From an uncultured Nitrospiraceae bacterium (GTDB lineage: Bacteria > Nitrospirota > Thermodesulfovibrionia > Thermodesulfovibrionales > SM23-35): 64,000 nucleotides of DNA. The stretch is from NCBI GenBank assembly GCA_963727775.1, contig CAVSHB010000001.1, forward strand, positions 1,056,001-1,120,000, in the 5' to 3' direction. This document shows positions 4,975 through 23,194 of this stretch, piece after piece. Position numbers and translations under genes: made by a program. Every line of letters starts with the position of its first letter. Positions within the stretch are counted from its first letter, which is position 1. Below the pieces are notes generated by a model that saw only the letters and a program-made list of their open reading frames with translations, did no database searches and was not told the origin of the DNA.

Positions 4975-5254
4975 AACCCCTTTTTCCCTCAGTCGCACTT
5001 TATATCTACGACAATTTTTTATGGAGAAAGCAGATACACTATTACTGTCTATTTACAATTGTACCATGAACAATCGCAATAATATCTTTAACCGTTTGTT
5101 ACATGAAGACATTGCCAGGTTTAAAAACTGTTGCGGGCGTTGCCTTCTATGTGAACTGTGGTGCTTTACGGCGACTCGTTGGCGCGTTGATTACAGGAAG
5201 ATCTAAACGTAGATCAGAAACCACTAAAAAGTGTGCAGTTTACCTGATAGCTCA

Positions 5255-5878
5255 TTAGCAGCTAACTACACTCATTTGCTCCTTCAGGATTTTCCCAACG
5301 AAACTTTTTGACAATTTTGTCTTCTCTGCGATAGTTCGTATTGACAGTAACGGATCTTGTGTATGTAATCGTATTGCTTTCTCAATGTCAATAGGCGCAA
5401 CTGGCTTTCTGCCTAATCTCTTGCCCTTCCTCCGCGCATTCTCAAGGCCAGCCTTTACTCTTTCCCGGATAAGCTCCCGCTCAAATTCAGCCATAGACCC
5501 GATAATGTGAAACATAAGCCTTCCCTGGGGTGTTGTGAGGTCTAAGTTGTCCTGATACGATATAAATCCCACCCCGAGGCTCGAAAGCTCCTCAAGGGCC
5601 ATTACAAGCTGTTTCAGGCTCCTTCCGAATCGGTCCAGTTTCCACACTATTACAAGATCAACCTGCCTTTTCCTTGCGGCCTCAATGAGCCTATCAAGCT
5701 GAGGTCTTCGTTCCTTAGTTCCGGAGATGCCATTATCAACGTATTCCCCGGCTATGGTGAATCCTCTCCTTTGACAATACTCCCGAAGAGGCACAAGCTG
5801 AAGTTCAGGGTCTTGACCTTTATCGTGGGTTGAACAGCGGGCATATATTGCAGCTCTGACTTCCTTTTTCATTTTCAT
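5255..5878 (-). CDS. Small serine recombinase (resolvase/invertase) with C-terminal HTH
   Basis: YARCST catalytic Ser, KLDRFGRS, AEFERELIRERVKAG motifs. Confidence 0.93.
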   Translation of the reverse strand: MKMKKEVRAAIYARCSTHDKGQDPELQLVPLREYCQRRGFTIAGEYVDNGISGTKERRPQLDRLIEAARKRQVDLVIVWKLDRFGRSLKQLVMALEELSSLGVGFISYQDNLDLTTPQGRLMFHIIGSMAEFERELIRERVKAGLENARRKGKRLGRKPVAPIDIEKAIRLHTQDPLLSIRTIAEKTKLSKSFVGKILKEQMSVVSC

Positions 5879-5900
5879 TCTCCTTTTCGTTCGCGTAACC

Positions 5901-5986
5901 TGCTATTATATTAATACGATAGCAATATGATTCCAATATGTCAATAGTTTGTAGTATTGAAATGCTATCACGATAATGTTATTATT
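5901..5986. promoter_or_regulatory. Back-to-back sigma70 promoters with repeated TGCTAT/ATAGCA boxes
   Basis: Minus strand TTGACA-N17-TATCGT toward the resolvase; plus strand TTGAAA-N17-TATTAT toward the RHH gene; TGCTAT at 5901 and 5963, ATAGCA at 5919. Confidence 0.6.
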
Positions 5987-6003
5987 TTTCAGGAGGAAAC
6001 AAC

Positions 6004-6177
6004 ATGGTCAGAGAGAGGCTGTCAATAATGCGGAAGTCTTTCGGATTTAGGATTAATGTTGAATTAGCAAAGCAACTGAAGATTCTTGCTGTCGGTCAGG
6101 ATAAAGCTGTCAATGTTATCCTCGAAGAAGCGATAGAGGACTTACTGAAGAAGTATTCAAGGAAGGGCAGCAAATAA
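6004..6177 (+). CDS. Ribbon-helix-helix protein, 57 aa (not in ORF track)
   Basis: MVRERLSIMRKSFGFRINVELAKQLKILAVGQDKAVNVILEEAIEDLLKKY; strong AGGAGG RBS. Confidence 0.8.
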   Translation: MVRERLSIMRKSFGFRINVELAKQLKILAVGQDKAVNVILEEAIEDLLKKYSRKGSK

Positions 6178-6211
6178 GGCAAACTTCCATAAAAATAGAA
6201 TTATATTCTTG

Positions 6212-6240
6212 TTGTCAATAGAACATCCGTCAGGTATAAT
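6212..6240 (+). promoter_or_regulatory. sigma70 promoter for HU gene
   Basis: TTGTCA-N17-TATAAT. Confidence 0.7.
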
Positions 6241-6272
6241 TTCTCTCAACCAATTTTAACGGAGGGGACTCT

Positions 6273-6545
6273 ATGAAAAAAGCAGACTTTATCGAAAGAA
6301 TGGCAAAAGAGGCAAAGATTGCCAAGAAAGCAGCAGGAAAGGCACTCGATACATTTCTTGATGAAATCAAGAAGACATTAAAGAAGGGAAGCAAAGTGAG
6401 CCTTATCGGTTTCGGAACATTCCATGTTGGCAAAAGGAAAGCAAGAACAGGCAGGAATCCGAAAACAGGAGCAGCAATAAAAATCCTTGCCAGAAAGATT
6501 CCAAAATTTAAGGCGGGTAAGGCTTTTAAGGATCTATTGAAATAG
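6273..6545 (+). CDS. hup: HU family DNA-binding protein
   Basis: GFGTF...RTGRNPKTG...PKFKAG signature. Confidence 0.95.
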   Translation: MKKADFIERMAKEAKIAKKAAGKALDTFLDEIKKTLKKGSKVSLIGFGTFHVGKRKARTGRNPKTGAAIKILARKIPKFKAGKAFKDLLK

Positions 6546-6556
6546 TTTTATGTAAA

Positions 6557-6584
6557 GGGGGTATGGTCAGCCATACTCCCTTTT
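6557..6584 (+). terminator. Rho-independent terminator
   Basis: GGGGGTATGG-TCAG-CCATACTCCC hairpin followed by TTTT, just after the HU stop. Confidence 0.8.
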
Positions 6585-6595
6585 ATTACATTAGC

Positions 6596-6760
6596 CTAAA
6601 GAAAATTATAATGCTTCCTGACAGGTTCTTTTATATCCCATACACAAGACAGCCCCTTGGGGAATGTAACAAAGTCCCCAGCTTCTAATTCGACCTTGCC
6701 GTCTTTGGTCTCCACAACAACTTTACCCTCAAGTAGGTAGCACTCTTCAATACTGCTCAT
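6596..6760 (-). pseudogene. N-terminally truncated cupin (DUF861/Cupin_3-like)
   Basis: EECYLLEGKVVVETKDGKVELEAGDFVTFPKGLSCVWDIKEPVRKHY; only 54 aa and lacking the usual N-terminal third. Confidence 0.65.
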
Positions 6761-6846
6761 CCATTATTAATAATAAAACAAAACACATTATAATTGATGA
6801 GGTAGCTTGGGAATTTATCAGTAGGTTAAAAACAGGAGGACAAAAT

Positions 6847-7395
6847 ATGCAGAAGATTACATCCTATATAGTGATTTTGCTCTTATCGCTATTCTTCATT
6901 GCCTGTTCAAACACTCAAGCCATAGAACTGACACTCAATAACACCCCTGCCCAAGTATACTTCAGCCCCAATGCTGGTGCTACGGATGCGGTTGTAAAGG
7001 AAATAGGCAAGGCCAAGTCTGAGATTTTAGTTCAGGCATACAGCTTCACAAGCATGGAAATCGCAAAGGCTCTTGTAGATGCCCATAAAAAAGGAGTTCA
7101 TACGGAAATCATCCTTGATAAAAGCAACAGGTCACAAAAATATTCCGCTGCTGATTTTACTCGCAATATGGGTATCCCCACCTTTATTGATGCCAAACAT
7201 CAAATTGCCCATAACAAGATTATGATAATAGACAAGGAGACTGTCATTACCGGCAGTTTCAACTTCACCAAAGCTGCTGAAGAAAAGAATGCCGAGAACT
7301 TATTAATTTTGAAAAACAAGGAACTCGCAAAGCTGTATATTGATAATTGGAACAGGCATAAGGGGCATTCTGAGGAATATGGGGGGAGGGAATAG
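6847..7395 (+). CDS. Phospholipase D family nuclease (Nuc-like), probable lipoprotein
   Basis: Single HNKIMIID...GSFNFT HKD motif; hydrophobic leader ending FIAC. Confidence 0.9.
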   Translation: MQKITSYIVILLLSLFFIACSNTQAIELTLNNTPAQVYFSPNAGATDAVVKEIGKAKSEILVQAYSFTSMEIAKALVDAHKKGVHTEIILDKSNRSQKYSAADFTRNMGIPTFIDAKHQIAHNKIMIIDKETVITGSFNFTKAAEEKNAENLLILKNKELAKLYIDNWNRHKGHSEEYGGRE

Positions 7396-7430
7396 TGGAT
7401 ATTTACAAATGAAATTGGAAAATCAGGGTA

Positions 7431-8186
7431 CTATTTGGGCACTGGAGTTTTAACATAATGCAATCCTGTCCAGATTAATACAATTGCAAATATCACACGC
7501 AAGGTATTATCAGGAAGTAAGTGAGCAAGGGTTCCTCCCACATATGTACCTACAAGAATTCCTGGGATAAGACCAATAAGGAGATTTGTTGTAACATTCC
7601 CCAATTTCCAATGCGTGTAGGCTCCGACTCCGCCAGCAGGAATCATTGCGAGCAGCGAGATTCCCTGTGCTGTATGTTGCCCGATACCAGCCAGAAGAAC
7701 CATTGCTGGAACCATGACTGTCCCTCCGCCAACTCCCATCATACCTGATAAAAAGCCTGTAAAAATACCTGTTATTAACAGTACAATAATTTTGAGGAAA
7801 CCCGTAGCAGATACCATGATAAATGATAAATAGGGTTTTAAAAGCAAGAGTGCCGAGACAAAAATTAAGAAAGCTCCGAATACCCGCTTTAATTTCCATT
7901 CAGGGAGTGCATGAGCATACTGTGCTCCTGCCCGTGCCGTAAATATTGCCGTTGTTGCAATGAGTATAGAGGCAACCACATCAATAGAACCTTTTAAGGC
8001 ATAAGTTATTGCTCCGCTAATGCCTGTAAAAACAAGGGCTACCAGACTGGTACCATGTGCCTTGTGTTGACTCATCTTTAAGAATCCGACCATCAGGGGA
8101 ATCATAACTACTCCCCCTCCGAGACCAACAAGTCCACCAAAGATTCCAGCAATGAGTCCGATTAGTAAACTGCCTATATGGAGCAT
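7431..8186 (-). CDS. TauE/SafE sulfite exporter family protein
   Basis: Duplicated GLGGG/GVGGG..VP motifs, AHGTSL, multiple TM helices. Confidence 0.9.
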   Translation of the reverse strand: MLHIGSLLIGLIAGIFGGLVGLGGGVVMIPLMVGFLKMSQHKAHGTSLVALVFTGISGAITYALKGSIDVVASILIATTAIFTARAGAQYAHALPEWKLKRVFGAFLIFVSALLLLKPYLSFIMVSATGFLKIIVLLITGIFTGFLSGMMGVGGGTVMVPAMVLLAGIGQHTAQGISLLAMIPAGGVGAYTHWKLGNVTTNLLIGLIPGILVGTYVGGTLAHLLPDNTLRVIFAIVLIWTGLHYVKTPVPK

Positions 8187-8269
8187 GAATTAATTTTATC
8201 ATTAAAAAGGAAAAGGATTATCTTATAATTCTCAGTAGGTCATTATTAAAGGAGGCAGGATAAAAAATC

Positions 8270-8755
8270 ATGAAACAAATAACATTTCAACCAATCGGCA
8301 CAATCCACACTCCCTTTAAGGATCCAAAAGATATGCCTATACAGGCAAAAGGTGGAAAGGGCATCAAAGGAACTATAAAAATTAAACCCGCATTTGCTGA
8401 AGGACTAAAAGATATCAGGGGGTTCTCACATATTATATTGATTTATAACTTCCATCGTTCAAACGGATATTCTCTGGTGGTTAAGCCATTTTTGGATGAT
8501 AAGTTGCGTGGAGTATTTGCAACGAGGGCACCCAAACGTCCAAATCCGATAGGGATATCAGTTGTCAGGCTCAAGAAAGTGGAAGGTAGCATTCTGCATA
8601 TCGAGGACGTAGATATCGTGGACGGGACTCCATTATTGGATATAAAGCCGTATATCCCCGATGTTGATGTGTTTAAAGCAACACGTATCGGGTGGCTCTC
8701 CAAGAAGACAAAGGGGTTCAGGAAGGCTAAAGCGGATGCGAGGTTTAAAGCATAG
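8270..8755 (+). CDS. trmO: tRNA (t6A37)-N6-methyltransferase TrmO/TsaA family
   Basis: GVFATRAPKRPNPIG and DGTPLLDIKPY motifs. Confidence 0.9.
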   Translation: MKQITFQPIGTIHTPFKDPKDMPIQAKGGKGIKGTIKIKPAFAEGLKDIRGFSHIILIYNFHRSNGYSLVVKPFLDDKLRGVFATRAPKRPNPIGISVVRLKKVEGSILHIEDVDIVDGTPLLDIKPYIPDVDVFKATRIGWLSKKTKGFRKAKADARFKA

Positions 8756-8800
8756 ACTATCTTTTTAGAAATTTTACTAATTCTATTTACGGAGGATTAT

Positions 8801-9217
8801 ATGGTTTCAACAGATACAATCTCTTTAATTACAAAAGGCTTTAGCGATGTGCTTGATATTACCGATAAGGTTACAGCAATTATCGCAAAGTCGGGGATTC
8901 AGAATGGTTTGGTAAATGTTTTCTGCTCGGGATCCACAGGAAGCATTACCACTATTGAATTTGAATCAGGTGTCATTAATGATTTGAAGAAAGCCATTGA
9001 AAAGATTGTTCCTTCAAATATCCCCTATGAACATGACAAGAGATGGGGAGACGGTAATGGCTTTTCTCATGTGAGGGCAGCTCTCATGAAACCTTCCCTT
9101 ACAGTCCCTATTGTCAACGGGAAACTGACTCTGGGTACATGGCAGCAGATAGTCTTTATGGATTTTGATAATCGGAGTAGGGATAGGAAGGTTGTTGTTC
9201 AGGTTGTGGGGGAGTAA
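8801..9217 (+). CDS. yjbQ: YjbQ / UPF0047 family protein
   Basis: DGNGFSHVRA and LGTWQQI motifs. Confidence 0.9.
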   Translation: MVSTDTISLITKGFSDVLDITDKVTAIIAKSGIQNGLVNVFCSGSTGSITTIEFESGVINDLKKAIEKIVPSNIPYEHDKRWGDGNGFSHVRAALMKPSLTVPIVNGKLTLGTWQQIVFMDFDNRSRDRKVVVQVVGE

Positions 9218-9306
9218 GAAGATCTTTGTTACACCTACTATGCTTTTAAAACAATAGAAGACGATCAATGATGATATACACGAGAAACAAAAGAAATAAT
9301 TAACCT

Positions 9307-11346
9307 TTAATTGTTTCGCTTATAAATATTCAGCAGCTTTTCGAGCAGTTGTTTCTTGTCATATAGTGGAGAAACTTCCGGCCTCTCTTTTTCAGGCAAT
9401 TCTCTCATTCCCCGTCCGGCCACATCTTTGAACTCCAATTTAGTTAGCACATTCGGTACGTCTACAAACCTGGACATCTTATTAAACTGCGTGATGCCGC
9501 CCCTGAGGCCTTCATGATGCAAGGTGAGAAAACATCTCTTCTTCGCCCTGGTAAGCGCCACATAAAACAACCTCTGCTCCTCTTCAATCTCATCTTCGCT
9601 GTCCAAAGCAAATGTTATCGGCAGTACTCCATCCATAAGACCCATGATTACGACTGTATCCCACTCCAGGCCCTTTGCCGAATGTATTGTCGAGAGCACA
9701 AGCGGTTTTTCCTCTTCCTTAGTCTCCGGCTCTATCCCCCAAACCCCTCTTTCGGGAGGCTCGATGGCAAAGGCTTCAAGGAGGTCTTCCAGCGAGTCGT
9801 ATCTCATCGTTATCTGCCTTAAAGCTTCAAGGTCGTTCTGTCTCATGTGCCAGTCATCATATCTTTCTTTCATGAGAGGGATATAATAATCAAGGATTAC
9901 CTCGTATGTTTCTCCTACATTTATTTGTTGTCCATAAACTGCTTTAACCGCTTTTTCGAGCTTGCCGAGTCCCTCTGAGTAAGGATGCCCCTTTGCATAC
10001 TTGGAGAACACTTTATCCAGGATCTCGTCAAAAGAGGAACATCTGGTGGCTTCATCGGTAATAGCCCCGGCTGTTTTAGGTCCGATCCTTTCTATCAGCA
10101 TTAAGACCCTGTTCCAAGCAAGTTCGTCTTTGGGGTTTATAAGCAATTTCAGATGGGAGAGGATATCCTTAACATGGGCTGTCTCATAGAATTTAAGACC
10201 GCCATAGGTCTCATAGGGTATATTCCTTTTGCCCAATTCGGACTGGAGTGGAATCGACAGATACGAGGACCTGAATAAGACACACTGGTGTCCCAATGAT
10301 ATGCCCTGGTCCAACTGCTGTTTAATTAAATCCGCGACCCACTCGGCTTCTTCATAAGCATCCTTAAAGAAAAGCAGCCGGCTCTTCTGTCCGGTATGCT
10401 TTTTAGCTGCGACGAGGCATTTGGAATATTTGTTTTTCATGTTTTCCATTACCGCATTGGCAACATCCAGGATGGATTGGGAACTTCGATAGTTTTGCTC
10501 AAGCGTGACAACTCTGCACTCCGGGAAACGTTTGGGGAATTCCATGATATTTTCATGCGACGCTCCCCTGAACCCGTAAATGCTCTGGGCGTCGTCTCCG
10601 ACAACCATGATGTTCCTGTGTTTATCCGCCAGAAGGTAAGCAATATCTCCCTGTATGATATTGGTGTCCTGATATTCGTCGACCATGACATATCTATACC
10701 TCTGAGAAAGCTTTTCCCTTATCTCTTCGTTTTCAAGCAGGATCCTTAAATAAACGAGCAGGTCATCGTAATCGAGGTAGTTCTTGTCTAACTTGTACGC
10801 AGCGTATTCTTCCCTCAGGTTGTCCATCTCGGATAGATACTCTACAAAGTGAGGGTACTCTCTCTTTATGACCTCTCCGATGGACTTATTCTTATTTATG
10901 GACATGCTGATGATGGCCCGCAGGGTATCTTTCTTGGGGAATCTCTTTTTCTTTTCATAAAATCCCAGTTTTGAAGCGCACCTATGTATTGCCTCTTCTG
11001 CATCGCTTTCATCCAGGACAACAAACCCGTCAGGGAAACCAAGGGATTTTGAATATATCTTCAGCATTTTATAGGCGAAGGAATGGAAGGTCCCGCCTTC
11101 TACATTCTTGCATTGCGGGTCGTGCTTGGAGGCCCGAGAAAGCATTTCATGGGCTGCTTTTCGGGTGAAGGTCAGAAGCAGGATGGAGTTGGGACTGACC
11201 TTATTCTGTATGAGATTCAATACCCGGTATTCGATGACCCTTGTCTTGCCTGAGCCTGCGCCGGCGATTACAAGAACAGGCCCATCCATTGCTGTCACAG
11301 CGGACAACTGAGCGGGATTCAATGTATTTTTTAAGTCATCACTCAT
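9307..11346 (-). CDS. UvrD/PcrA/Rep SF1 DNA helicase
   Basis: AGAGSGKT, VDEYQDT, GDDAQSIYGFRGA, STIHSAKGLEW, RLFYVALTRA. Confidence 0.95.
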   Translation of the reverse strand: MSDDLKNTLNPAQLSAVTAMDGPVLVIAGAGSGKTRVIEYRVLNLIQNKVSPNSILLLTFTRKAAHEMLSRASKHDPQCKNVEGGTFHSFAYKMLKIYSKSLGFPDGFVVLDESDAEEAIHRCASKLGFYEKKKRFPKKDTLRAIISMSINKNKSIGEVIKREYPHFVEYLSEMDNLREEYAAYKLDKNYLDYDDLLVYLRILLENEEIREKLSQRYRYVMVDEYQDTNIIQGDIAYLLADKHRNIMVVGDDAQSIYGFRGASHENIMEFPKRFPECRVVTLEQNYRSSQSILDVANAVMENMKNKYSKCLVAAKKHTGQKSRLLFFKDAYEEAEWVADLIKQQLDQGISLGHQCVLFRSSYLSIPLQSELGKRNIPYETYGGLKFYETAHVKDILSHLKLLINPKDELAWNRVLMLIERIGPKTAGAITDEATRCSSFDEILDKVFSKYAKGHPYSEGLGKLEKAVKAVYGQQINVGETYEVILDYYIPLMKERYDDWHMRQNDLEALRQITMRYDSLEDLLEAFAIEPPERGVWGIEPETKEEEKPLVLSTIHSAKGLEWDTVVIMGLMDGVLPITFALDSEDEIEEEQRLFYVALTRAKKRCFLTLHHEGLRGGITQFNKMSRFVDVPNVLTKLEFKDVAGRGMRELPEKERPEVSPLYDKKQLLEKLLNIYKRNN

Positions 11347-11395
11347 ATTTTTAATCTTAAAATAATCCTTTATATTTTTTCTTCATGACCCAACC

Positions 11396-12709
11396 TCATA
11401 CTCTCATGTTCAGCATGGGCAACCCCAGCCTCTGTCTTTTGTTTTCACCTTTGAATAGGGTTGTCGTCCTATTAGGTACATCGCCTCTTTCTCCCTCGTG
11501 TTGGGCCTGGAGTTTTGTAGGCAGGCTTGCCGCATGATGGACTGTGTATTTCCCGAATTTCGCTGAGAGTTCATCGACTGCATTGTAAATCTTGGCCATC
11601 TTATCGACTTTGGCAGTGTCATCAAAGAGGGTATACTGTAACCCTGTCTCCGGAACCAATCCGGCCAGTACAACCCCGGTCTGCCGATAAAAGCTATGAA
11701 TCTCATAGACACGTCCAAAGCCTTCTCTTAATGGACCAAAAAGCTCTGAAGGATAGGCAGTCGCACGGTTTAATTTCAGCTCAATGCCGGTGTCTTTGAA
11801 TTCCTTAGTTCTCAGAAAGACTATGAGTCTGTTTGCCGCAAGCCTATATCTTCTTGCCTTTATGCATGCATTCTCCAGGTTCTTGGACAGCTGAGCAAAG
11901 ACGAACGATTCATTATTTGAGGGAGGAGTAAAGGTCTTTGTCTTGCTTATGGATTGATAGCTATTCTTTGATTCGGTTGTAACAGGATAGACAGACCTTC
12001 CGTTCAACTCATGCCAGATCTCCTTATAAGGTTTGGAGAGTTGGTTCTTTATGAAATATTCATCCTTCTTTGCAAACTGAAGTGCTGTGATAATCCCGAA
12101 CTTTCTCAGGAATGCCGCAGTGTTCGGCCCGATGCCCCATACTTTTTCCACCGGCAGGTTTTTCAGGTAAATATGGATGTCCCTTCCCGGTATGATGGTC
12201 AGCCCATGAGGTTTGTTGTGCTTTGAGCCTATTTTTGCAAGGACCTTGGAAATACTCAACCCGACTGATACGGTAAGCCCTAATTCTGTCTCAACAGTCT
12301 CCTGCATCTTTTCAGCGATCATTCCGTAAGGACCATGGTAATTTCTTCTCAGGCCGGTGAGGTCAACAAATGCCTCATCAATCGAGTATTCTTCCACATC
12401 AGGCGAGAAACGCCTGAGTATTTCAAACATCCTTAGAGAAAAAAGACTATAGGTCTCATAATCCGATGGAAGGATGACGGCATCAGGGCAGACCTGTTTT
12501 ACTTCAAAGAGTCTCATGCCTCTTTTTACTCCTCTGGCCTTTGCCTGATAACTGGCAGCTGCGACGATCCCGCGTTCCTTGCCCGTGATGACAGGTTTCC
12601 CTTTAAGCTCTGGGTGAATGGCCTGTTCACAGGATGCAAAAAAGGCGTCGGCATCTATATGTAGGATTGCCCTTGGCCAGGAACGAATGGTTAATGGTTG
12701 ATTGTCCAT
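11396..12709 (-). CDS. Y-family DNA polymerase (DinB/UmuC-like)
   Basis: HIDADAFFAS, YSIDEAF, VWGIG; clamp-binding-like QYTLF; C-terminal extension. Confidence 0.93.
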   Translation of the reverse strand: MDNQPLTIRSWPRAILHIDADAFFASCEQAIHPELKGKPVITGKERGIVAAASYQAKARGVKRGMRLFEVKQVCPDAVILPSDYETYSLFSLRMFEILRRFSPDVEEYSIDEAFVDLTGLRRNYHGPYGMIAEKMQETVETELGLTVSVGLSISKVLAKIGSKHNKPHGLTIIPGRDIHIYLKNLPVEKVWGIGPNTAAFLRKFGIITALQFAKKDEYFIKNQLSKPYKEIWHELNGRSVYPVTTESKNSYQSISKTKTFTPPSNNESFVFAQLSKNLENACIKARRYRLAANRLIVFLRTKEFKDTGIELKLNRATAYPSELFGPLREGFGRVYEIHSFYRQTGVVLAGLVPETGLQYTLFDDTAKVDKMAKIYNAVDELSAKFGKYTVHHAASLPTKLQAQHEGERGDVPNRTTTLFKGENKRQRLGLPMLNMRV

Positions 12710-12729
12710 AATGCTTTATTAAAAGGATG

Positions 12730-13323
12730 TTACTTATATTTTCTTACTACTGCGGTTACCACGCCTGCGATCTTGAGCTCTTTTTTAGGTCTGATAGGCT
12801 GGTACTTGGGGTTAGCAGGCAATAGCGCCACATTTTCACCCCGTTTCCTTAGGTACTTCATAGTCCAGTCCCCATCAACTTCGGCAATTACGATATCCCC
12901 ATTCTTTGGGACCTGCCCCTTATCAACAAGCACCATGTCACCGGGCAATATGCCTGCGCCTGACATCGAATCCCCCGATACTTTAAGCAGGAAGGTTGCT
13001 TCACGGTTTTGAATGAGGAGATCGTCAAGGGACAGGTTGTCGGCAAGTTCCTCCTCGGCAGGGCTCGGGAACCCCGCTTCCACTGTGCCGAGCATTTTTA
13101 CCGGGGCTGCGATCGATCCCGGGATAAGCCTGCCTTTAGGGTCTCTTTGAAGCACTCTCATCTTCTCAAGCCGGTTGATGAGCTTATAAGCCGCATTCTT
13201 TGACCTGAATCCGGCAAGTTGAGCGATCTCTGAAAAGCTCGGCATTCTGCCTTTCTGGTAATAGAACCTGGCTATTGCCCGGATTCTGTTTTTCAGCTTA
13301 TCATCTTTGAGCTCATTCTCCAT
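12730..13323 (-). CDS. LexA-like wHTH repressor with UmuD-type S24 peptidase domain
   Basis: MPSFSEIAQLAGFRSKNA wHTH; AGFPSPA cleavage site; GDSM Ser and TMKY Lys; ATG 13323 preferred because the TTG at 13359 is the -35 box. Confidence 0.9.
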   Translation of the reverse strand: MENELKDDKLKNRIRAIARFYYQKGRMPSFSEIAQLAGFRSKNAAYKLINRLEKMRVLQRDPKGRLIPGSIAAPVKMLGTVEAGFPSPAEEELADNLSLDDLLIQNREATFLLKVSGDSMSGAGILPGDMVLVDKGQVPKNGDIVIAEVDGDWTMKYLRKRGENVALLPANPKYQPIRPKKELKIAGVVTAVVRKYK

Positions 13324-13329
13324 TTTTTC

Positions 13330-13359
13330 AGTATATAGTGTACGTTCGTTCACTGTCAA
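13330..13359 (-). promoter_or_regulatory. lexA promoter with palindromic operator in the spacer
   Basis: TTGACA-N18-TATACT; AGTGAACGAACGTACACT imperfect palindrome (GAAC-N4-GTAC) at 13337-13354. Confidence 0.75.
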
Positions 13360-13423
13360 GATGGGGTGAGATTTCTGAATGAACTATAAAGATCACAGCT
13401 TTATTTTATGATAGAGTAATCAT

Positions 13424-14086
13424 ATGTGCGGGCGTTTTGTAAGATGCAGCTCTATCGAGGAGATCGCTGACTATTTTGACATAGAGCAACCCTCGTTTGA
13501 GTTTGAGCCAAGCTACAACGTTGCGCCTACACAAGACATCGTTATCATCAATAACCGGGGGGTCAAGCAGTTGGTGAAATGTCATTGGGGCTTTGTTCCG
13601 CCCTGGTCCAAGGACCTTTCTGTAGGCTATAAGATGATTAATGCCCGATCAGAGACTGTGGCTGATAAGCCAAGCTTCAAGTCTGCTTTCAGAAAGCAGA
13701 GGTGTCTTGTGATTGCAAACGGTTTTTATGAATGGAAGAAGGATAAAAAGACAAAGGTTCCGGTCTATGTGAGCCTGAGGTCCGGCAAGCCTGTTGGTTT
13801 TGCCGGGTTATATAATGTTTGGATTTCTCCGGATGGCGAGAAGATATGCACCTGTACAATACTGACAACGGAAGCCAATGATATTTTATCTTCTATCCAT
13901 GACAGGATGCCGTTAATAATATCCCGGGATAAGGAAGACATTTGGCTAAACCCCGAGCTGGATGATGTTGAGCTTCTGAAAGGTTTTCTAAGGCCCTATC
14001 CATCAGAGGAGATGGTGGTAACCAAGGTCTCTGATAGGGTAAACTCTCCGAGGTATAACTCTCCTGATAATATAAGGCCAATATAG
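13424..14086 (+). CDS. SOS response-associated peptidase (SRAP/YedK/HMCES)
   Basis: N-terminal MCGRF, YNVAPT, INARSET, GFYEW, IHDRMP. Confidence 0.95.
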   Translation: MCGRFVRCSSIEEIADYFDIEQPSFEFEPSYNVAPTQDIVIINNRGVKQLVKCHWGFVPPWSKDLSVGYKMINARSETVADKPSFKSAFRKQRCLVIANGFYEWKKDKKTKVPVYVSLRSGKPVGFAGLYNVWISPDGEKICTCTILTTEANDILSSIHDRMPLIISRDKEDIWLNPELDDVELLKGFLRPYPSEEMVVTKVSDRVNSPRYNSPDNIRPI

Positions 14087-14306
14087 GGATCATTACCTGG
14101 TCGAGATAGATTTCATCCAGTACCACGCATTTTTTCTTTTGATAAAAAAAGAAGAAGTAATAGGGGAATGAAATCTCGACTTCACCTACTACTAAACGGA
14201 ATTGGAGAAAATCCAAATGTGAAGATTTACAGGAGAAGTCTGCTCTAATGTCACTAACGAATTCAATGAGGCGCAGGGGCAATAAGGCTGAAATGAAAAC
14301 CAGAAG

Positions 14307-15164
14307 CTATACTACCGTTTCTCTTCTTCCAAATGTCATTTCTACAATGTGATATACAATAATTGGGAACAAAAAAAGAAATATGGCATACTCAAATTGG
14401 ATAGACCATGGGCTGACAAGTCTTCTCTGATATATATAAAATATTTCTGTGTAGGCAAGGATATTGAGAATAAAATGCAGCAAAACACATAGCGACAAGG
14501 ATTTTGTCTTGTAGAAGAAGTAACCTAAGAAGAGTCCTACTGCAAGGCGGTTCAAACTAAAGTCCCAATGCATCAATGTCCAAATCATTGCAGGAATCAA
14601 GATAGCTGTCAACTTATTGGTTCTCTCTCTCAATGAATTTATTGCAAAGTATCTAAAGACTATTTCTTCACTGGTGATCGCTATAGGAGACATGATCAAC
14701 AGCAGCAAAATTGAACTTAGCGGTGCACGAATAACAGAATTCAGAATAATCTGGTTCTCGCTACTCCCTAAAATCTGTATTGGCACTGTATGAACTGCTC
14801 TAAGCGTGCCCGCAGATATAAACAGGAAGAAAAGAAGTAGCATGAAGTAAAGAAATGACGTTTTCTTAATTTTAGGGAAGAATGCAAGGGAATGAATTAC
14901 AACGCGATATTGGACAGAACGCGACAAAATTAGAAAAGGAGCTATCGCCATCAAGAGTAGGAAAAAAAGGTAAAAGGATAAAGTATTTAGCTCAAAGGAT
15001 AATGCTTCATTACCAAAAAAGAATACAGCATAGATTACAAGCATGATGAATGTAATCTTGCTTAGGTCAGTCAACTTAAATCCAGTGCCACCAGGCGCAG
15101 GCAGAAGCCTATCGGCAATCAAGGTTAGAAGAACACCCGCTAAGATGAGAAGCAAACTCTGCAA
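14307..15164 (-). CDS. CPBP (CAAX/Abi) intramembrane metalloprotease family
   Basis: EEIVFR, WTLMH, LHFILN motifs in a multi-TM protein. Confidence 0.85.
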   Translation of the reverse strand: MQSLLLILAGVLLTLIADRLLPAPGGTGFKLTDLSKITFIMLVIYAVFFFGNEALSFELNTLSFYLFFLLLMAIAPFLILSRSVQYRVVIHSLAFFPKIKKTSFLYFMLLLFFLFISAGTLRAVHTVPIQILGSSENQIILNSVIRAPLSSILLLLIMSPIAITSEEIVFRYFAINSLRERTNKLTAILIPAMIWTLMHWDFSLNRLAVGLFLGYFFYKTKSLSLCVLLHFILNILAYTEIFYIYQRRLVSPWSIQFEYAIFLFLFPIIVYHIVEMTFGRRETVV

Positions 15165-15381
15165 GATATTTCTTCGCCTTACTCTTTCTTTAGCGTCATC
15201 AATCCCATCATCACCGTCAACCGCTTAAACAAAACTTATTCTCTTCAGCTAACCTACGCATAATCATATCGTCTCGAAAGTGACGTAATATTTACGAGAA
15301 AATTACCAGTTGTACTCGACACGATTATATCACAGCTGGTATGTGTGATGTTCAGGAAGAAAAAGTTAGGCTGGGAATCTT

Positions 15382-15768
15382 CTATTTTGTTCTATGTGCA
15401 TGTCTTTTCGCTTCCTCAACTAACCAATCCTTTGCTTCTTCAATATCATCAAATGCTAAAAGGTTTCTTCCGGAAAAATGCATAACACTATTGTAAATGA
15501 TCTTTTTTAATGCATCTAATCCAACTACAGCACCTGCTTTTACAAAGGGCTTGTTGCCTTTTACAAATTCCTTTAATGCCTGAGTTACTTCAAGGTTATA
15601 TTTTGCACCTGTCACATCAGACAAAGTAAGGACTGAGTTAGGAGGTTCCGCTCTTATAAGTTTTTCTGCTTCCTTAATTGTGATATGAAAGTCTTCAACA
15701 TTACAGCCCGAAAAATCTAAGAATAGAATTTGTCTTCCGTTGTGGTAGATGTATTTCACCCTTTTCAT
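15382..15768 (-). CDS. Small STAS/SEC14 (SpoIIAA-like) domain protein
   Basis: LTLSDVTG...AVVG...FDDIEEAKDWL pattern. Confidence 0.65.
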   Translation of the reverse strand: MKRVKYIYHNGRQILFLDFSGCNVEDFHITIKEAEKLIRAEPPNSVLTLSDVTGAKYNLEVTQALKEFVKGNKPFVKAGAVVGLDALKKIIYNSVMHFSGRNLLAFDDIEEAKDWLVEEAKRHAHRTK

Positions 15769-15816
15769 TTACAGTTTTATTACTTTCTACGATCTAAAAA
15801 TGTCAGAAAATCGCCA

Positions 15817-16407
15817 TTACTTAAACCAATGCAATTCATAAACTATCTCCCAAAGATCGTCGGATGCTTTATCAGTGCCCTTCTTTTTCATATTCAAATT
15901 CCTTCCTCCTGCCATTTCCACCGCCTTTTTTGAATATCCGAGGCATGCCGGCTCCAGCCAATCAAGGAAAATTTCAGGAAGTGTAAACTTCAGTATTGCA
16001 TGACCACTTTCTGACACTGGAACTTCTACCTTTCCGGTATTAAAGAATCTGCTCCAGAGTTTCGGATAGTTCTTTATTACAAATGATGGGTTCGCAAAAC
16101 TAAAGAATATTTTATATAAGCTATTAAGGCTATGATCGGCTATGTATTCATAAATACTGGCAAGCTCGGATTCATGGTCCAGCTTTAATTCTGAAGATAG
16201 GATCGATGTGAGTTCCTTAAATGACGAAAAGGGATATTCGCCTATGGGCAAAAGAGAGCCACCCCAAATTTTGCGGCTATCGTTTGATAATGACTGTAAC
16301 ATCCCTTCCCATCTTTCATTCCCGTATTTGTTCACAATAAACTGTTTCGTATAAATGAAGTTTACACCTCTTGCCAATGCCTGTTCCATATCATATACCT
16401 CTTTCAT
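15817..16407 (-). CDS. DUF2378/TIGR02265-like (HNOB/V4R-related) protein
   Basis: ARGVNF...YP...LWSRFFNTG...GY..KAVEMAGG pattern. Confidence 0.55.
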   Translation of the reverse strand: MKEVYDMEQALARGVNFIYTKQFIVNKYGNERWEGMLQSLSNDSRKIWGGSLLPIGEYPFSSFKELTSILSSELKLDHESELASIYEYIADHSLNSLYKIFFSFANPSFVIKNYPKLWSRFFNTGKVEVPVSESGHAILKFTLPEIFLDWLEPACLGYSKKAVEMAGGRNLNMKKKGTDKASDDLWEIVYELHWFK

Positions 16408-16679
16408 ACTACCTTTGTCCTAATAAACGTATCGCCAATTTTATTTCATCATTAATGAAGTCGTCAATCCTACTTGAGTAGGAGATGATTATTATCGATT
16501 ACTATTTGTACTGTGCATTCTTTCTGGAGAGATTAGGAATGAGTGCTTCAGGAAGGAAGCTTGCGCATGGCTTAATATTATTTCGCATTGCGACTTTCGC
16601 CCCTAAAAAACAGGGTATTTTTGCGATGTGCAGCTACAAGAATCATATCTGTATAAGTGATCAGGAATGGCTTTGCCAC

Positions 16680-17372
16680 TCATTGTTCCTGTGTGATCTC
16701 TCCCAACAAGAAATTATATCTTATCATCGTAGCTTTGGTTTCGATCTTATTCCTTCTAAGACTAACATTGCTCAGAAAATCAGCGTAAATCGGAAAATGA
16801 TCTAAAACTACTTTTTGACTTATAATTGTCGTCAATACCGCTCTTTTGACCGCTGCCATAAAGACGTTGCCCAGCATCTCGATATTTGTTATCCTGTTTT
16901 GTTTTTCAGTAAAATGCACAAACAAATTGTCTGCGTGAAACCCTGTGAAACTATCAAGTTCAAGATCAACACCACCTTCGAAAGCTATCATATCTTTTTC
17001 TGTTCTTATTGTTCGGGCCGCCACTTTGTAAGGAAACTGCTGAAATACTGCACCAAGGATGTGATCAGTTTCCGCAACTGGCTGATTTAAATTGTTGTCG
17101 GAAGCAACTGACAACGTATGGCAACCGAGCACAGAGAAGAAAAAGACTGAGATTAAAACAGTCAGAAATGGCCAGTGAATTGTAGGTAATAGGCGAAGTC
17201 CATCGACTATTTGATTGCGCGGAGAAAATGTGACTAACAGCAAGAATCCAACTGCGACAACTACCGTCCAAAACCCTCTAACATCGAGCCAATAGGATGA
17301 GAAGAAAAAACAAGTGACAATTACAACTACCGCTGTCAGAAAGAGCTTTGGCACAACCCGTCTTATGCTCAT
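16680..17372 (-). CDS. Membrane-anchored hypothetical protein, LptA/OstA-like C-terminus
   Basis: Three N-terminal TM segments; beta-rich FEGGV/GNV/NVSL...IRYNF repeats. Confidence 0.45.
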   Translation of the reverse strand: MSIRRVVPKLFLTAVVVIVTCFFFSSYWLDVRGFWTVVVAVGFLLLVTFSPRNQIVDGLRLLPTIHWPFLTVLISVFFFSVLGCHTLSVASDNNLNQPVAETDHILGAVFQQFPYKVAARTIRTEKDMIAFEGGVDLELDSFTGFHADNLFVHFTEKQNRITNIEMLGNVFMAAVKRAVLTTIISQKVVLDHFPIYADFLSNVSLRRNKIETKATMIRYNFLLGEITQEQ

Positions 17373-17777
17373 GTTACACTGAGAATATTTTCATTAATAA
17401 TTTCCGCTTGTACTACACACAATTATATCAGGTTTCAAAAGTGTTAAGTACAGGAAGTATTCGAAGAAATATTTATAGACTTCCCGAATATCTTTTTGGA
17501 TTATAGTTCGGGATAAAATACGTATTCAAAAGAACCCAGTGAGCGTCGCATCCTTTCTTCATCTAATGCGCAAATCTGAGAATTTCTGTTTTGTGCGGAG
17601 TACGCTTGTAAATGTTGGAATTGAAGCGTCTTGAAGGTCCGGAATTATTAACAGAAAGACGCCATAATGATTTCTATTGATGGTATAGCCTCGCCCGCTT
17701 AATCAAGCAAATAATATTGTGGTATACTTTTGACATATGAAAGCGCTGCCGAATAATACTTGTTATGTTACCAACGA

Positions 17778-18041
17778 ATGAAAACATTCTTTGCGGCCGC
17801 TACCGAAAAAGGTACTGTGGCTGCGTCAGTCAAGGTTGCTTTGTTCGTCGGATCAATCCTTGCACTGATCAACTATGGCGACCACATCTTTCTGCATTAC
17901 GATATGCGCGTCCTTGACTGGATCAAGCTCGCCGTTACTTACTGTGTTCCGTATTGCGTGGCCACGTATGGCGCGGCCAGGTACGCTATGAGTCATGCCA
18001 ACGACAAGGGCGTCAAAACAAGTGGTAATTGTCAATCATGA
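17778..18041 (+). CDS. nrtS: NrtS-family small membrane protein
   Basis: KVALFVGSILALINYGD...WIKLAVTYCVPYCVATYGA. Confidence 0.75.
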   Translation: MKTFFAAATEKGTVAASVKVALFVGSILALINYGDHIFLHYDMRVLDWIKLAVTYCVPYCVATYGAARYAMSHANDKGVKTSGNCQS

Positions 18042-20434
18042 AGAAGACTTCCAAAGCTGCGATCGATAATGAACGCCTACTTGCAGAGAATGAGGAATTG
18101 AAAATGCGCCTCACTGATCTGAAGCGAGCAGAGGAGCGTATGAGACATCTTGCCTCTTTTCCACAGATGAATCCGGATCCCTTGGTGGAGGTAAATTCTT
18201 CCTGTAAAGTCACTTTCTACAATCCGGGAGCACAAAAAGCTCTTAAAAGCCTGGGGATGGACAAAGAAGATTTCAGCATTTTCCTGCCCTCTGATATTGA
18301 CGTCATCTTAAAGGATTTAGGGAAAAAAGAAGAATCGGTTTTCTATCGTGAGATAATCATAAAAGACAGGGTTTTTGGCCAAAACATTTATCTCACTCCT
18401 CAGTATGATGCCGCGCGTATCTATGCTCATGACATCACCGAATATAAGAGGGTCGCGTCGTTGATCCAAACTCGCCTGCGCATGTCCGAGCTGGCACAAC
18501 GGACCGGCATGGAGGAACTGATGCAAGCTGCCCTGGACGAAGCGGAACTCCATACCGGCAGTCAGATTGGTTTCTTCCATTTCGTTGACGAGGACCACGA
18601 GCATCTCACCTTGCAAGCTTGGTCCACCAATACTCTTAAGAACATGTGCAAGGCCGAGGGCAAAGGTTTGCACTATCCGATCAGCCAGGCAGGTGTCTGG
18701 GTGGATTGTTTCCACGCACGCATTCCAGTCATCCACAACGACTACGCCAGCGTGCCCCACAGAAAGGGATTACCCGAGGGGCATGCGCCGGTTGTGCGTG
18801 AACTTGTTGTGCCGATCCTGCGCAACGGCTCCGTGGTCGCCATCATTGGCGTGGGCAACAAGCCGATAGATTACACAGAGCAGGACGTGGATACGCTGCT
18901 CACGCTCGCAACCCCGATTATGGATCTTGTTGCGCGCCAACAGGCCGAGAAAGCGTTGCGACAGGAGAAACTATTTACGGATACGGTTATCGAGACCATA
19001 CCGGGTCTGTTCTTCGTCATTAACCGCGACCGTCGTTTTGTGCAATGGAACCGCGCTTGCGAGGAGCTGTTGGGTTTGTCAGGCGAAGAGTTCAAGGCAC
19101 TCGATGCGCTTGCGCCGCTTTTGGAACCCGACCGCGAAATGGCGGCGCGCAAGTTGCGCGAAGGGTTTGAGACCGGTGAGACAGAACTGGAAGCGCGCGT
19201 CGCCGGCAAGGACGGGGTGCGGGAGTTTCAGTTTGCCGCCAAGCGGATGACACTGGGCGACGAAATGTTCCTCATCGGCAATGGCGTTGATATCACTGAG
19301 CGAAAGCGGGCCGAGGAGGCATTGCGGACCAGCGAGGTAAGGTATAGGACACTGTTTGAAACAATGCTGCAAGGCGTGGTCTATCATGACGCCGATGGAA
19401 TGATCGTCTCGATGAATCCCGCTGCTGAACGAATCTTTGGAAAGGGGCCTGAAGAATTCCTCGGAGAGAGTCCGGTGTCCATCGAGCACCACACAATTCG
19501 GGAAGATGGCTCGCCTTTCCCTGGCGTGGAGCATCCATCTTCTGTGGCACTGCAGAGCGGACGCGAAATGCGGAACGTGGTGATGGGAGTATTTAACCCA
19601 AAAGAAGAAGACTATCGTTGGATCAACGTTACTGCAGTGCCTCTGTTCCGAAAGGGTGAAAGCAAACCCTACCATGTCTACACGCTCTTTGACGACATCA
19701 CCGAGCGCAAACGTGCCGACGAAGAGCTGCGCAAGCTTACGGAAGAACTGAGACGCTCTAACGCTGATCTCCAGCAGTTTGCCTATGTTGCATCCCATGA
19801 TCTTCAGGAACCTCTGCGTATGGTCGCCAGCTATATTCAGCTCCTTGAGAAAAAATACAAGGGGAAACTGGATGAGCAGGCAGACAAGTTTATTAACTAT
19901 GCAGTTGATGGTGCTTTTCGCATGCGGACGCTCATTGAGGGGTTATTAGCGTATTCCCGTGTTAGCCGTCAGCGAGGCGAATTTGGATTAGTCAATACCA
20001 ATGATGTTTTTGCAACAGCTGTTGCAAACCTCACGGCTTCAATCCAAGAAAGCAAAGCAATGATCACAAAAGATGAATTGCCCACGGTCTTAGGCGATCA
20101 GACCCAGCTTATACAACTTCTGCAGAACCTTATAGGCAATGCCATAAAATTTAGAAGGCCTAACGCTCCTCCCTTAGTCCATATCTCGGCAAAGAGAGCG
20201 GGAGTGGAGTGGGTATTCTCCGTTTCAGACAACGGTATCGGGATAGAACCGCAATACTACGAAGGTATATTCCTGATCTTTCAGCGCCTGCATACGCGTG
20301 AGAAATACCCGGGCACGGGGATAGGGCTTGCTTTATGTAAACAAATTGTGGAGCGCCATCATGGGCGCATTTGGGTTGAGTCAGTCCCTGGCGAGGGTAC
20401 GACATTCTTTTTTACTATTCCTATTGGAGGATAA
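18038..20434 (+). CDS. PAS-GAF-PAS-PAS histidine kinase with Cph1-like kinase core
   Basis: FAYVASHDLQEPLR H-box, FQRLH...YPGTGIGLA; ATG overlaps the nrtS stop (ATGA). Confidence 0.9.
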   Translation: MKKTSKAAIDNERLLAENEELKMRLTDLKRAEERMRHLASFPQMNPDPLVEVNSSCKVTFYNPGAQKALKSLGMDKEDFSIFLPSDIDVILKDLGKKEESVFYREIIIKDRVFGQNIYLTPQYDAARIYAHDITEYKRVASLIQTRLRMSELAQRTGMEELMQAALDEAELHTGSQIGFFHFVDEDHEHLTLQAWSTNTLKNMCKAEGKGLHYPISQAGVWVDCFHARIPVIHNDYASVPHRKGLPEGHAPVVRELVVPILRNGSVVAIIGVGNKPIDYTEQDVDTLLTLATPIMDLVARQQAEKALRQEKLFTDTVIETIPGLFFVINRDRRFVQWNRACEELLGLSGEEFKALDALAPLLEPDREMAARKLREGFETGETELEARVAGKDGVREFQFAAKRMTLGDEMFLIGNGVDITERKRAEEALRTSEVRYRTLFETMLQGVVYHDADGMIVSMNPAAERIFGKGPEEFLGESPVSIEHHTIREDGSPFPGVEHPSSVALQSGREMRNVVMGVFNPKEEDYRWINVTAVPLFRKGESKPYHVYTLFDDITERKRADEELRKLTEELRRSNADLQQFAYVASHDLQEPLRMVASYIQLLEKKYKGKLDEQADKFINYAVDGAFRMRTLIEGLLAYSRVSRQRGEFGLVNTNDVFATAVANLTASIQESKAMITKDELPTVLGDQTQLIQLLQNLIGNAIKFRRPNAPPLVHISAKRAGVEWVFSVSDNGIGIEPQYYEGIFLIFQRLHTREKYPGTGIGLALCKQIVERHHGRIWVESVPGEGTTFFFTIPIGG

Positions 20435-20435
20435 A

Positions 20436-20900
20436 ATGGAAAATGCGATTGGCAAGATCATAGAGATTTTGTTGGTAGAGGACAATCCAGGCGATGTCGA
20501 CCTGATAAAAATTGGCTTGGAGGACGCCAAAGTGCTAAATAAGCTGCACGTTGTCACCGATGGCCTAGAGGCGATGAAATTTCTTAGAGGGGAGGACATC
20601 TATGCAAATGCTCCATGCCCCGACCTTATCCTTCTGGATTTGAATCTTCCCAGAAAGAGTGGCAAGGAGGTGCTCCAAGAGATCAAGGTAGATCCAAAGC
20701 TGCAGGCCATCCCGGTTGTCATCCTCACGAGCTCGGAAGCAGATGAAGATATTTGTAGAGCCTATGAACTTCACGCAAACTGCTACATTAGCAAGCCAGT
20801 CGATTTTGAGCAATTTGTCAAAGTGGTGCAATCATTAGAGCATTTTTGGTTTACTGTGGTTAAACTGCCCGGCAGAAATTTACCGCCGCACAGATCATGA
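20436..20900 (+). CDS. Single-domain response regulator (Rcp1-like)
   Basis: LLVEDNPGD, LILLDLNLP, ANCYISKP, FWF; GGAGG RBS. Confidence 0.92.
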   Translation: MENAIGKIIEILLVEDNPGDVDLIKIGLEDAKVLNKLHVVTDGLEAMKFLRGEDIYANAPCPDLILLDLNLPRKSGKEVLQEIKVDPKLQAIPVVILTSSEADEDICRAYELHANCYISKPVDFEQFVKVVQSLEHFWFTVVKLPGRNLPPHRS

Positions 20901-21182
20901 GACTGCCACTATCTCAAAAAACCTGTCCCACCCCGAAATAGTCGAAGCATTCACTGCAGACGGGTTTGCTCTCATGAGCATGGGTTTCTTTAGTTGTGTT
21001 GTATACAATGGGATTAGTGATGATAAGAACTTGCGCAATACCACTGATTTAGGTTTTTGTAAAGACTTTTGTACGTAACCTTAATCGTTCCTATTCCCAT
21101 CGACCGTTTATTTCCAGAGGAAACCTTACGCCTGTAGCAAAAAAGAGACACTGAGGATTTCAGGAAGTAGCCCATGAGGGTG

Positions 21183-21671
21183 TTATGTTTCTTGTTCCTG
21201 GCGTAAATACAATTTGCCAACGCGACTACCTATAAAACCAGCTACGCCTATACCGACGAGGTATCCAATTCCGAAAATTACGCCGATAAGAGCGGTGGCT
21301 ATGCATATCCCTGATAAAGCAAAGGCTTTCCACCCCGAACGTTTTTTATAGCCAATCTGCAGTTTTATTGTCGTCCCAATTTTGGTATTTATATCCATTG
21401 TGTTGCTTTTTATCCAGTCAATCTTAATTAGAACGCTATGTGGCCCTGGAGCAAGAGGAATTAGTGATGTTGTGCCGTTCTTTATTGAGCCTACCTTTTC
21501 TCCATCAACCAATATTGAATAGGAGCGCAGGCCTCTACTCAGATGAGATTCTCTATAAATTTCTAAGTTACCAGTTGGCAGTGTAGGCAGTTCATGAACG
21601 AGCGCAATGTGGCAATCGCTGCAAATAGTAAAGCCAGATCTATATTCGGCTTTACAGGCTGAACAAAACAT
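21183..21671 (-). CDS. Hypothetical membrane protein with N-terminal Zn-ribbon
   Basis: FCSAC..EYRSGF..CSDC; C-terminal TM segments; GGAGG RBS. Confidence 0.7.
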   Translation of the reverse strand: MFCSACKAEYRSGFTICSDCHIALVHELPTLPTGNLEIYRESHLSRGLRSYSILVDGEKVGSIKNGTTSLIPLAPGPHSVLIKIDWIKSNTMDINTKIGTTIKLQIGYKKRSGWKAFALSGICIATALIGVIFGIGYLVGIGVAGFIGSRVGKLYLRQEQET

Positions 21672-21954
21672 TCAAAATATCCTCCTCCAATAAGGCTGTT
21701 GGCGAAATCGATTACCAATTGTAACTTACGCTATTCTATCAAATCCCGGCGATGAGGACTACAGTCAACTATCATCAGTTTGCCTTTCTTAATGGAATAA
21801 AAAGATTCCTGATGTTTGTGATTGAGAATAATTGCTCCATCACCATTAGCACATTTTTTGACATTGAAGAGGCAAACCCGGGAAACGAGCTTCGTAGAAT
21901 CGCATAGAATCGATTTTCTCGGATCGACCCATATCCCAGATACCCTATTGTGAA

Positions 21955-23169: not shown

Positions 23170-23194
23170 ACGAAAACCTCCTGCGTTCCGGTAA

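Follow-up and report, generated by a model that had tools for sequence, protein, structure and literature searches.

Gene-cassette capture has so far been ascribed to the integrase IntI acting on attC sites and, in Acinetobacter, to XerCD acting on pdif sites. The attC sites carry AAC/GTT core boxes, are variable in length and are laid out as four half-sites. Here we describe a repeat in a stretch of 64,000 nucleotides (the window) from the genome of an uncultured Nitrospiraceae bacterium (GenBank assembly GCA_963727775.1). This source genome, of 3.43 Mb and 97% complete, is coded G000 and its contigs C1 to C4, the window being G000:C1:1056001-1120000; other G numbers denote comparison genomes and L numbers fetched loci. 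The repeat, TTGTACT-N36-CAGGAAG, is in our judgement quite probably a site of about 62 bp whose flanks are exchanged at CAGGAAG; as double-stranded DNA it is likely acted on by a tyrosine recombinase that moves gene units, probably one of 279 residues. It works like an integron or a dif-module system, yet fails membership of both.

In chromosomal integrons, site families are shared among unrelated genes, according to the available part of PMC8618304. As integrons and clusters of attC sites lacking an integrase (CALINs) are described in the accessible sections of PMC8618304 and PMC8876359, the repeat resembles them in its direct-repeat arrays of one- or two-gene units, in a palindromic site with crossover at its far end, in site families common to unrelated genes, in scattered clusters without an integrase and in parasites of the IS110 insertion sequence (IS) family, and here too a candidate tyrosine recombinase has a putative entry site next to its gene. 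It differs from them in its fixed length, its sequence-conserved arms, its invariant 7-bp exchange box and the absence of a hairpin, fold or covariation; its genes run opposite to the attC-type direction, about 45% of them with a -10 element in the site, and the candidate enzyme lacks the IntI insertion. The earlier note on this DNA had stated that the motif lacks attC AAC/GTT cores, rightly, as neither is in the consensus, and an attC identity was rejected.

For Acinetobacter dif modules, the accessible part of PMC13141974 gives a shared spacer as the condition for exchange. The repeat shares with these modules a double-stranded exchange of the tyrosine-recombinase type that needs such a spacer, small accessory modules and site-targeting IS elements, and its exchange does fall within a shared spacer, of 7 bp rather than 6. 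Set against pdif as described there, it has 62 bp and four half-sites instead of a 28-bp XerC-6-XerD layout, no XerD arm, one near-universal heptamer, mostly direct arrays instead of alternating C and D modules, and a chromosomal location. As with the seekRNA targets of IS1111/IS110 elements in the available text of PMC11187229, several IS110-family elements occupy one position of the repeat; this likeness concerns the parasites and not the repeat, which forms no hairpin like that of repetitive extragenic palindromic (REP) sequences. A literature search, with most subscription papers and supplements outside its scope, returned nothing on the site or the enzyme.

The six box pairs listed in the earlier note all lie where it placed them, with 43 nt between box starts. 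Genome-wide, 7 exact and 24 one-mismatch copies of TTGTACT-N36-CAGGAAG were counted; the other 40 gaps in the range 20-60 gave 0-8 one-mismatch matches each, and exact matches occurred at two of them, gap 24 (6 matches) and gap 55 (1). The six exact TTGTACT-N24-CAGGAAG matches probably lie within one repeated element. An iterated weight matrix detected 104 copies of at least 18 bits against 0 in the reversed genome, and an arm-only matrix, from which the central columns were dropped, 114 copies of at least 15 bits against 0 in the reversed control. The union of the site sets, used in later counts, comprises 123 sites. The observation is therefore real and, at about 120 copies, far larger than the window, and copies are spread across all four contigs instead of being specific to one island. 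The sixth copy, taken to be degenerate, is intact, its CAG (21762-21764) being split from its GAAG (23403-23406) by an IS110 element, and the window holds further copies in a co-oriented seventh at 21118 and at 49297 (-) and 63382 (+).

With TTGTACT numbered 1-7, the consensus is ATTWCCRN-TTGTACT-NNRCAC, core, GTGYNNRNTW-CAGGAAG-NA, a rigid inverted repeat of about 62 bp that ends in CAGGAAG. The imperfect inverted repeat of about 60 bp reported before is thus present, but the dyad extends beyond the two boxes on a single axis (i / 47-i), with mirror pairs at 2-7/40-45, 11-13/34-36, -3/50 and -5/52 among 447 sites. The spacing of the arms is rigid (82 matches at offset 0, 16 at -1, 7 at -2 and 0-3 at 22 other offsets). 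The cores had been called largely unrelated; taken genome-wide they group into families, about 45% with an extended -10 element. Nor does their supposed self-complementarity hold, the mean fold energy of 287 sites being -3.8 against -3.7 kcal/mol in shuffles; in the same sites no stable hairpin was found, fold energies being the same as those of half-swapped chimeras and shuffles. Covariation between the dyad halves was absent in 100 non-redundant G000 sites, and in the 287 sites 26 of 28 dyad positions were within 2.5 standard deviations of column shuffles, the exceptions being 11/36 and 22/25. There being no sign of a folded strand, the site is probably read as double-stranded DNA. The heptamer has a CTGTGAG subtype with 7 copies in G000 and, separately counted, 3 near candidate enzymes, and no CTGTGAG/CAGGAAG hybrids occur among the site lists examined; in loci from GTDB representatives and metagenomes, which were selected with a pattern containing CAGGAAG, conservation of the heptamer is inflated. 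No target duplication was found for the repeat, and head-to-head sites with about 20 bp between heptamers occur at G000:C1:375923/376041 and L009:10592/10710.

The position of exchange is given by pairs of sites, among 463, that share only one flank. In 84 left-flank-only pairs the identity is 0.95 at positions 46-50 and 0.38 at 51-53 (chance 0.38), and in 23 right-flank-only pairs it is 0.36 at 24-33 (chance 0.33) and 0.81 at 51-53; such pairs are not independent, and 6 of 48 right-only pairs are copies of one IS110. When each site is used once, 25 left-sibling pairs have an identity of 0.92 at 50 and of 0.36 at 51, and 13 right-sibling pairs have 0.23 at 41 and 0.92-1.00 at 52-57. Left siblings are thus alike up to 50 and right siblings from 51, which places the breakpoint within CAGGAAG.

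Whole units also recur from site to site: a gene of 120 residues is duplicated at 95% (C1:475624-476104 and C3:204112-204586), likewise a unit of 184 residues, and contigs from two independent studies match the window's gene of 196 residues through the whole of site 4 and diverge at 16557. A co-oriented site lies at most 3 kb to the left of 47 of the 123 G000 sites (6.4 expected), and the units between such sites hold one or two genes in 42 of 47 cases, with 54 of 60 genes antiparallel. Between the two options of the earlier note, a cassette-delimiting recombination site or an operator/promoter, the breakpoints inside CAGGAAG and the unit duplicated from site to site favour the former, and the latter is true in part only.

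A candidate for the recombinase came from a G009 locus that had been retrieved on other grounds: there the gene of a tyrosine recombinase is flanked by two sites that face inwards. For its family, of 279 residues and more than 3000 clusters, 31 loci were compared, mostly from genomes of other families, and 12 of these have a site of at least 12 bits no more than 1.5 kb away. Among 52 loci of other tyrosine recombinases, some 20 of which are XerC/D, 1 has such a site (Fisher p 1e-5), and in G000 the figure is 3 of 41 (p 0.002); kin are not independent and some loci overlap. Over 21 loci, the number of sites per 10 kb declines from 2.4 near the gene to 0.27 farther away. In a set of 400 genomes, 4 of the 13 that bear the pattern have the gene too, compared with 23 of the 400 overall. 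An inward-facing site is found 80-123 bp behind the stop codon in L355, L363, L398 and L400, and a weaker or partial one in L364 and L376; two of three further deltaproteobacterial loci have it 107 and 123 bp behind the stop, and the distance in Nitrospirota is 80-100 bp. An alignment of five loci of one family displays a left-arm-like half-site 35 bp before an inverted heptamer, together possibly an attI-like platform.

The catalytic set of the protein (R142, K165, H224, R227, H251, Y260) is invariant in 28 sequences. It matches PF00589/PF02899 and has an Xer-like two-domain build (structure model with pLDDT 79 and pTM 0.50), is nearest to XerA (NF040815, 124 bits with a cut-off of 220; PDB 4a8e, 5hxy) though under every NCBIfam cut-off, and has no IntI insertion, its R-to-HxxR spacing being 84 versus 132-133. 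The family, which is patchy and often broken, forms its own long branch (100/100) among 33 local recombinases. Like the simple tyrosine recombinases of the Xer subgroup and archaeal XerA in the available part of PMC8138268, the protein has only core-binding and catalytic domains, but compared by description it fits none of the subgroups given there. Based on association, the chance that the 279-residue recombinase is the enzyme of the sites is about even.

In the mechanism that we propose, this recombinase, probably acting in trans, would excise and insert short gene units, and the site 80-123 bp behind its own gene would be an attI-like entry point. The heptamer would be a 7-bp overlap that partners must share, which would account for its near-invariance and for the absence of CTGTGAG hybrids. 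Of the two core half-sites, one would be the arm at positions 34-43 and the other a minimal mirror, at 51-52; the left half of the dyad would be an accessory binding site. A unit would run from the heptamer through its gene or genes and its own promoter to the next dyad, and, since it carries its own promoter, would be expressed wherever it lands. The identity of the enzyme and the movement of units as circles are the least certain parts. That this is a third independent cassette machine, with a 279-residue recombinase, a fixed entry site, self-promoted modules, a universal 7-bp double-stranded overlap and more than 100 sites per chromosome in Nitrospirota and Desulfobacterota, we regard as possible rather than probable.

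Several observations weigh against this proposal. As to the enzyme, G000 has only a remnant, at C1:203146-203259 beside the array at C1:205-218 kb; the gene was not found in the site-rich G023 and G006, nor in 3 of 5 deltaproteobacterial genomes; and 19 of the 31 loci of the family are without a site. The gene is moreover framed by its own inverted repeats of about 15 bp near start and stop (L349-L376, L335), which suggests a mini-element or autoregulation, and the recombinase may be carried along in the same variable regions as a passenger. As to the site, the half-site right of the heptamer is nearly unconserved in the 447 sites. As to the units, sibling copies do break inside the heptamer, but their gene-side ends are mostly not sites: the stretches shared by sibling pairs end away from a site in 35 of 39 pairs and at a site in only 2-3, although several of these far ends fall within diverging genes, or have a site 10-40 bp away in one of the partners. 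Beyond the first gene, 22 of 82 cases have a full site, 12 a heptamer-like or truncated one and 43 none; among these 43 are some operons and some genes that end, by eye, in attC-like hairpins. Left flanks are unrelated in 145 of 257 pairs whose cores are at least 86% alike, so that the site also travels without its gene. Complementarity between the start of a unit and its own far end is not above chance (28 units, p=0.15), and no excised circle or empty site was seen, the data being assembled contigs of relatives; a search of sequencing runs listed no RNA run and six DNA runs with a small share of the window, five of which were compared with it. Two joints from site 5 to site 4 (17439 to 16541/16544) may be chimeric loci and were not counted as circles. 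Site-headed genes ending in attC-like hairpins (by eye) lie at G000:C4:99879, C2:387375 and C3:120153, and are perhaps integron cassettes placed behind a site promoter.

These observations keep alive a second explanation. The repeat would in that case be a small mobile element, non-autonomous and sharply delimited at one end only (CAGGAAG), which makes copies of itself with variable neighbouring DNA, through one-ended or rolling-circle capture, the arrays arising by landing beside earlier copies. The right end is indeed sharp and the left fuzzy, the 145 core-sibling pairs losing likeness 10-30 bp left of the box, and many copies are solitary, but neither target duplication nor hairpin accompanies the repeat, several far ends lie within diverging genes, and right flanks recur as units that start at the heptamer, which is not expected from one-ended insertion into random DNA. 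The IS91-like and Y1 elements of G000 differ in their ends and do not have the site at their borders, and site families with unrelated genes are also typical of chromosomal integrons in what is accessible of PMC8618304; we consider this explanation quite unlikely. An origin as a miniature inverted-repeat transposable element (MITE), an IS91-type origin or a REP sequence was likewise rejected, as there is no target duplication, hairpin or end shared with elements of a resident transposase. The same holds for a RAYT-like Y1 gene between two sites, which has its own inverted ends and elsewhere occurs without sites, and for IS91-like integrase and Y2 elements. Elements of integrase and Y2 transposase with TTATG-type ends are located at G000:C1:20585-23533, C2:570935-573882 and C3:339432-342025; the one on C1 lies at the heptamer, within right-arm-like sequence, and a CAGCCA variant is occupied by related elements.

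Also unlikely, in our view, is that the repeat is a regulator-binding promoter module whose flank swaps are a by-product of IS110, where insertion at the AG of CAG/GAAG, homologous recombination between two copies and excision of one would give a heptamer breakpoint without a cassette recombinase. Many copies do contain a promoter-like -10 that would serve the gene they head: of 438 sites, 165 have an extended -10 beginning at position 15, on the opposite strand, and 25 have one in a second register, at 21-24, with almost none on the other strand. In 95 of 116 cases the left gene is directed away from the site, based on the gene calls made in this analysis (3302 genes in G000). Yet 231 of the 438 have none above threshold, and 93 of 287 sites keep their arms without the main -10, the arms being equally conserved in its absence; a fixed -10 in every copy, as expected of a sigma-70 promoter module, was thus not found, and sigma-70 and terminator scans were at chance level. 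The distance from site to next start varies from a few to several hundred bases, the genes headed are unrelated, and gene-less tandem and head-to-head sites occur. As an outward-firing extended -10 is present in about 45% of copies, the promoter is best regarded as optional cargo, and the operator/promoter option of the earlier note stands only for those copies that hold one.

The IS traffic on which the promoter explanation also draws is heavy. All five G000 copies of one IS1111-like family are at TWCAG/GAAG inside sites, although only 40 of the 237 TWCAGGAAG 9-mers in the genome lie in sites, and the window IS110 and an element at C2:272788 are also inserted at CAG/GAAG of sites. At nine of the 123 sites the last letters equal the right-hand termini of these two IS110 elements, which we read as footprints of imprecise excision, and 8 more share another variant. 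IS110 modules can circularise, as reported in the available part of PMC12288879. Against this, most other IS110 copies in G000 lie outside sites, and the gradient of sites around the 279-residue recombinase is left unexplained. IS1111-type elements, according to the accessible part of PMC11187229, are known to target the recombination sites of others, among them attC, REP and transposon ends (Tn21), which fits the repeat as a recombination site, yet feeds the promoter explanation as well.

Very improbable, finally, is that the site is an atypical dif-like or attC-like substrate of XerC/XerD or the integron integrase of the host. The layout of four half-sites recalls attC, the inner arm partly resembles the XerC arm of the family, and all 10 relatives searched encode both XerC and XerD, among them G006, where recent identical copies occur and other tyrosine recombinases are few; in the G000 assembly XerD is present and XerC was not found. 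However, the repeat has no XerD arm, no 11-6-11 layout, no hairpin and no covariation, genomes without pattern matches carry XerC/D too, and the true dif lies elsewhere, so that dif/XerCD was rejected. The likely chromosomal dif of the family is at G000:C1:1518197 (-) and in L315-L319, in 5 of 5 relatives. Nor does the G000 integron speak for this explanation, being broken and having an array without repeat sites; no match over the TIGR02249 cut-off was found. This classical integron, at G000:C1:919000-929000, has a long-type IntI broken by a four-helix-bundle-like gene and an array of toxin-antitoxin and other cassettes with canonical-looking attC (C1:919-927 kb, by eye).

Other recombinases were rejected as the enzyme. 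The small serine resolvase next to sites 1 and 2, to which the earlier note had tied them, is in 5 of 41 genomes, its query finding no match in the four site-rich genomes G006, G017, G019 and G022, and 243 loci gave one serine recombinase match. The tyrosine recombinase pair at C2:262969-263973, by the largest array, is a two-gene element that also occurs elsewhere, with one match in the 243 loci. A weak PF00589 match, single in several genomes, has a sequence that looks to us like a TOBE-type regulator. No recurrent recombinase was found next to pattern-picked sites in 100 loci or in the 243 loci.

A relaxed pattern matched 19 of 24 genomes of the same family, the maximum being 24 copies in a genome against 0-2 in the reversed control; in other families it matched 6 of 16 genomes, most with single matches near control level. 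With a stricter pattern, GTDB representatives yielded 98 stretches, 6 of them not scoring as sites, mostly from Thermodesulfovibrionales/Nitrospirota and Syntrophales/Thermodesulfobacteriota; metagenomes gave at least 120 pattern matches, and IMG/VR gave 5, of which 1 scores as a site, and 1 locus of the 279-residue enzyme. Relatives with the motif are mainly Thermodesulfovibrionales, and arrays of 6-17 copies are present in G000, G023, G006 and G348. If our interpretation is right, a sequence-read double-stranded site with an optional built-in promoter would be a separate solution to gene-cassette capture, active in sulfur- and carbon-cycling anaerobes of two phyla, where it would explain much accessory gene turnover, and its sites would be invisible to integron finders. 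A compact recombinase that exchanges at a defined heptamer would be a possible assembly tool, and the repeat is a new class of natural target for RNA-guided IS110 elements.

Coordinates of the sites, units and neighbouring features in the window.
Feature	Coordinates	Strand	Basis or remark
Site 1, heptamer variant CATGAAG at 5102-5108	5049..5110	+	25 bits, arm-only matrix
Site 2	5141..5202	+	box pair
Small serine resolvase, neighbour, probably not the sites' enzyme	5255..5878	-	
Site 3, heads CAAX-protease gene 14307-15164 (-)	15300..15361	+	box pair, matrix
Putative extended -10-like element in site 3, leftward	15324..15332	-	consensus match
Two-gene unit (128 aa, 196 aa; both minus strand), closed by site 4	15360..16555	-	
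Site 4, main register without -10	16496..16557	+	box pair, matrix
Single-gene unit (230 aa), closed by site 5	16556..17457	-	no family match
Site 5, nearest to consensus; putative extended -10-like element at 17422-17430 (-)	17398..17459	+	
3.7-kb unit, plus-strand histidine kinase and response regulator	17458..21167	+	minority gene orientation
Site 7, CAGGAAG at 21161-21167, absent from the earlier note	21108..21169	+	arm-only matrix
Single-gene unit (162 aa), between sites 7 and 6	21168..21764	-	
Site 6, left part through CAG; putative extended -10-like element at 21733-21741 (-)	21709..21764	+	
IS110-family element, transposase 21955-23226, inserted at CAG/GAAG	21765..23402	-	
Site 6, right part (GAAG)	23403..23408	+	
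tRNA-Leu, edge of variable region	25352..25437	+	
Additional site copy	49246..49307	-	matrices
Additional site copy	63372..63433	+	matrices

Sites 1 and 2 bound a gene-less unit of 92 bp, a 91%-identical copy of which is present with different flanks at G000:C1:319630. No site was detected at the far end of the CAAX-protease gene, and the proteins of the two-gene unit have no Pfam or NCBIfam match. The flank after the right part of site 6 resembles those of the sites at C1:218472 and C3:200908. An Rfam scan gave the tRNA only, with no match for the repeat.

A module of DinB-like, LexA/UmuD-like and SRAP genes at window 11396-14086 is 75% identical at L314:11423-14080 in G009, where it likewise adjoins repeat sites and the candidate recombinase. 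Small terminase-like and helix-turn-helix-like genes, found at window 23549-25437, G000:C1:218686-221743, C3:103415 and C3:199-201 kb, recur at the tRNA- or tmRNA-side edges of several site-holding variable regions and may represent a decayed satellite-like element. The window encodes several multi-PAS/GAF hybrid histidine kinases (1378-4998, 18029-20900 and 30419-34561), and PilZ-like, HU and signalling genes recur as between-site cargo in relatives.

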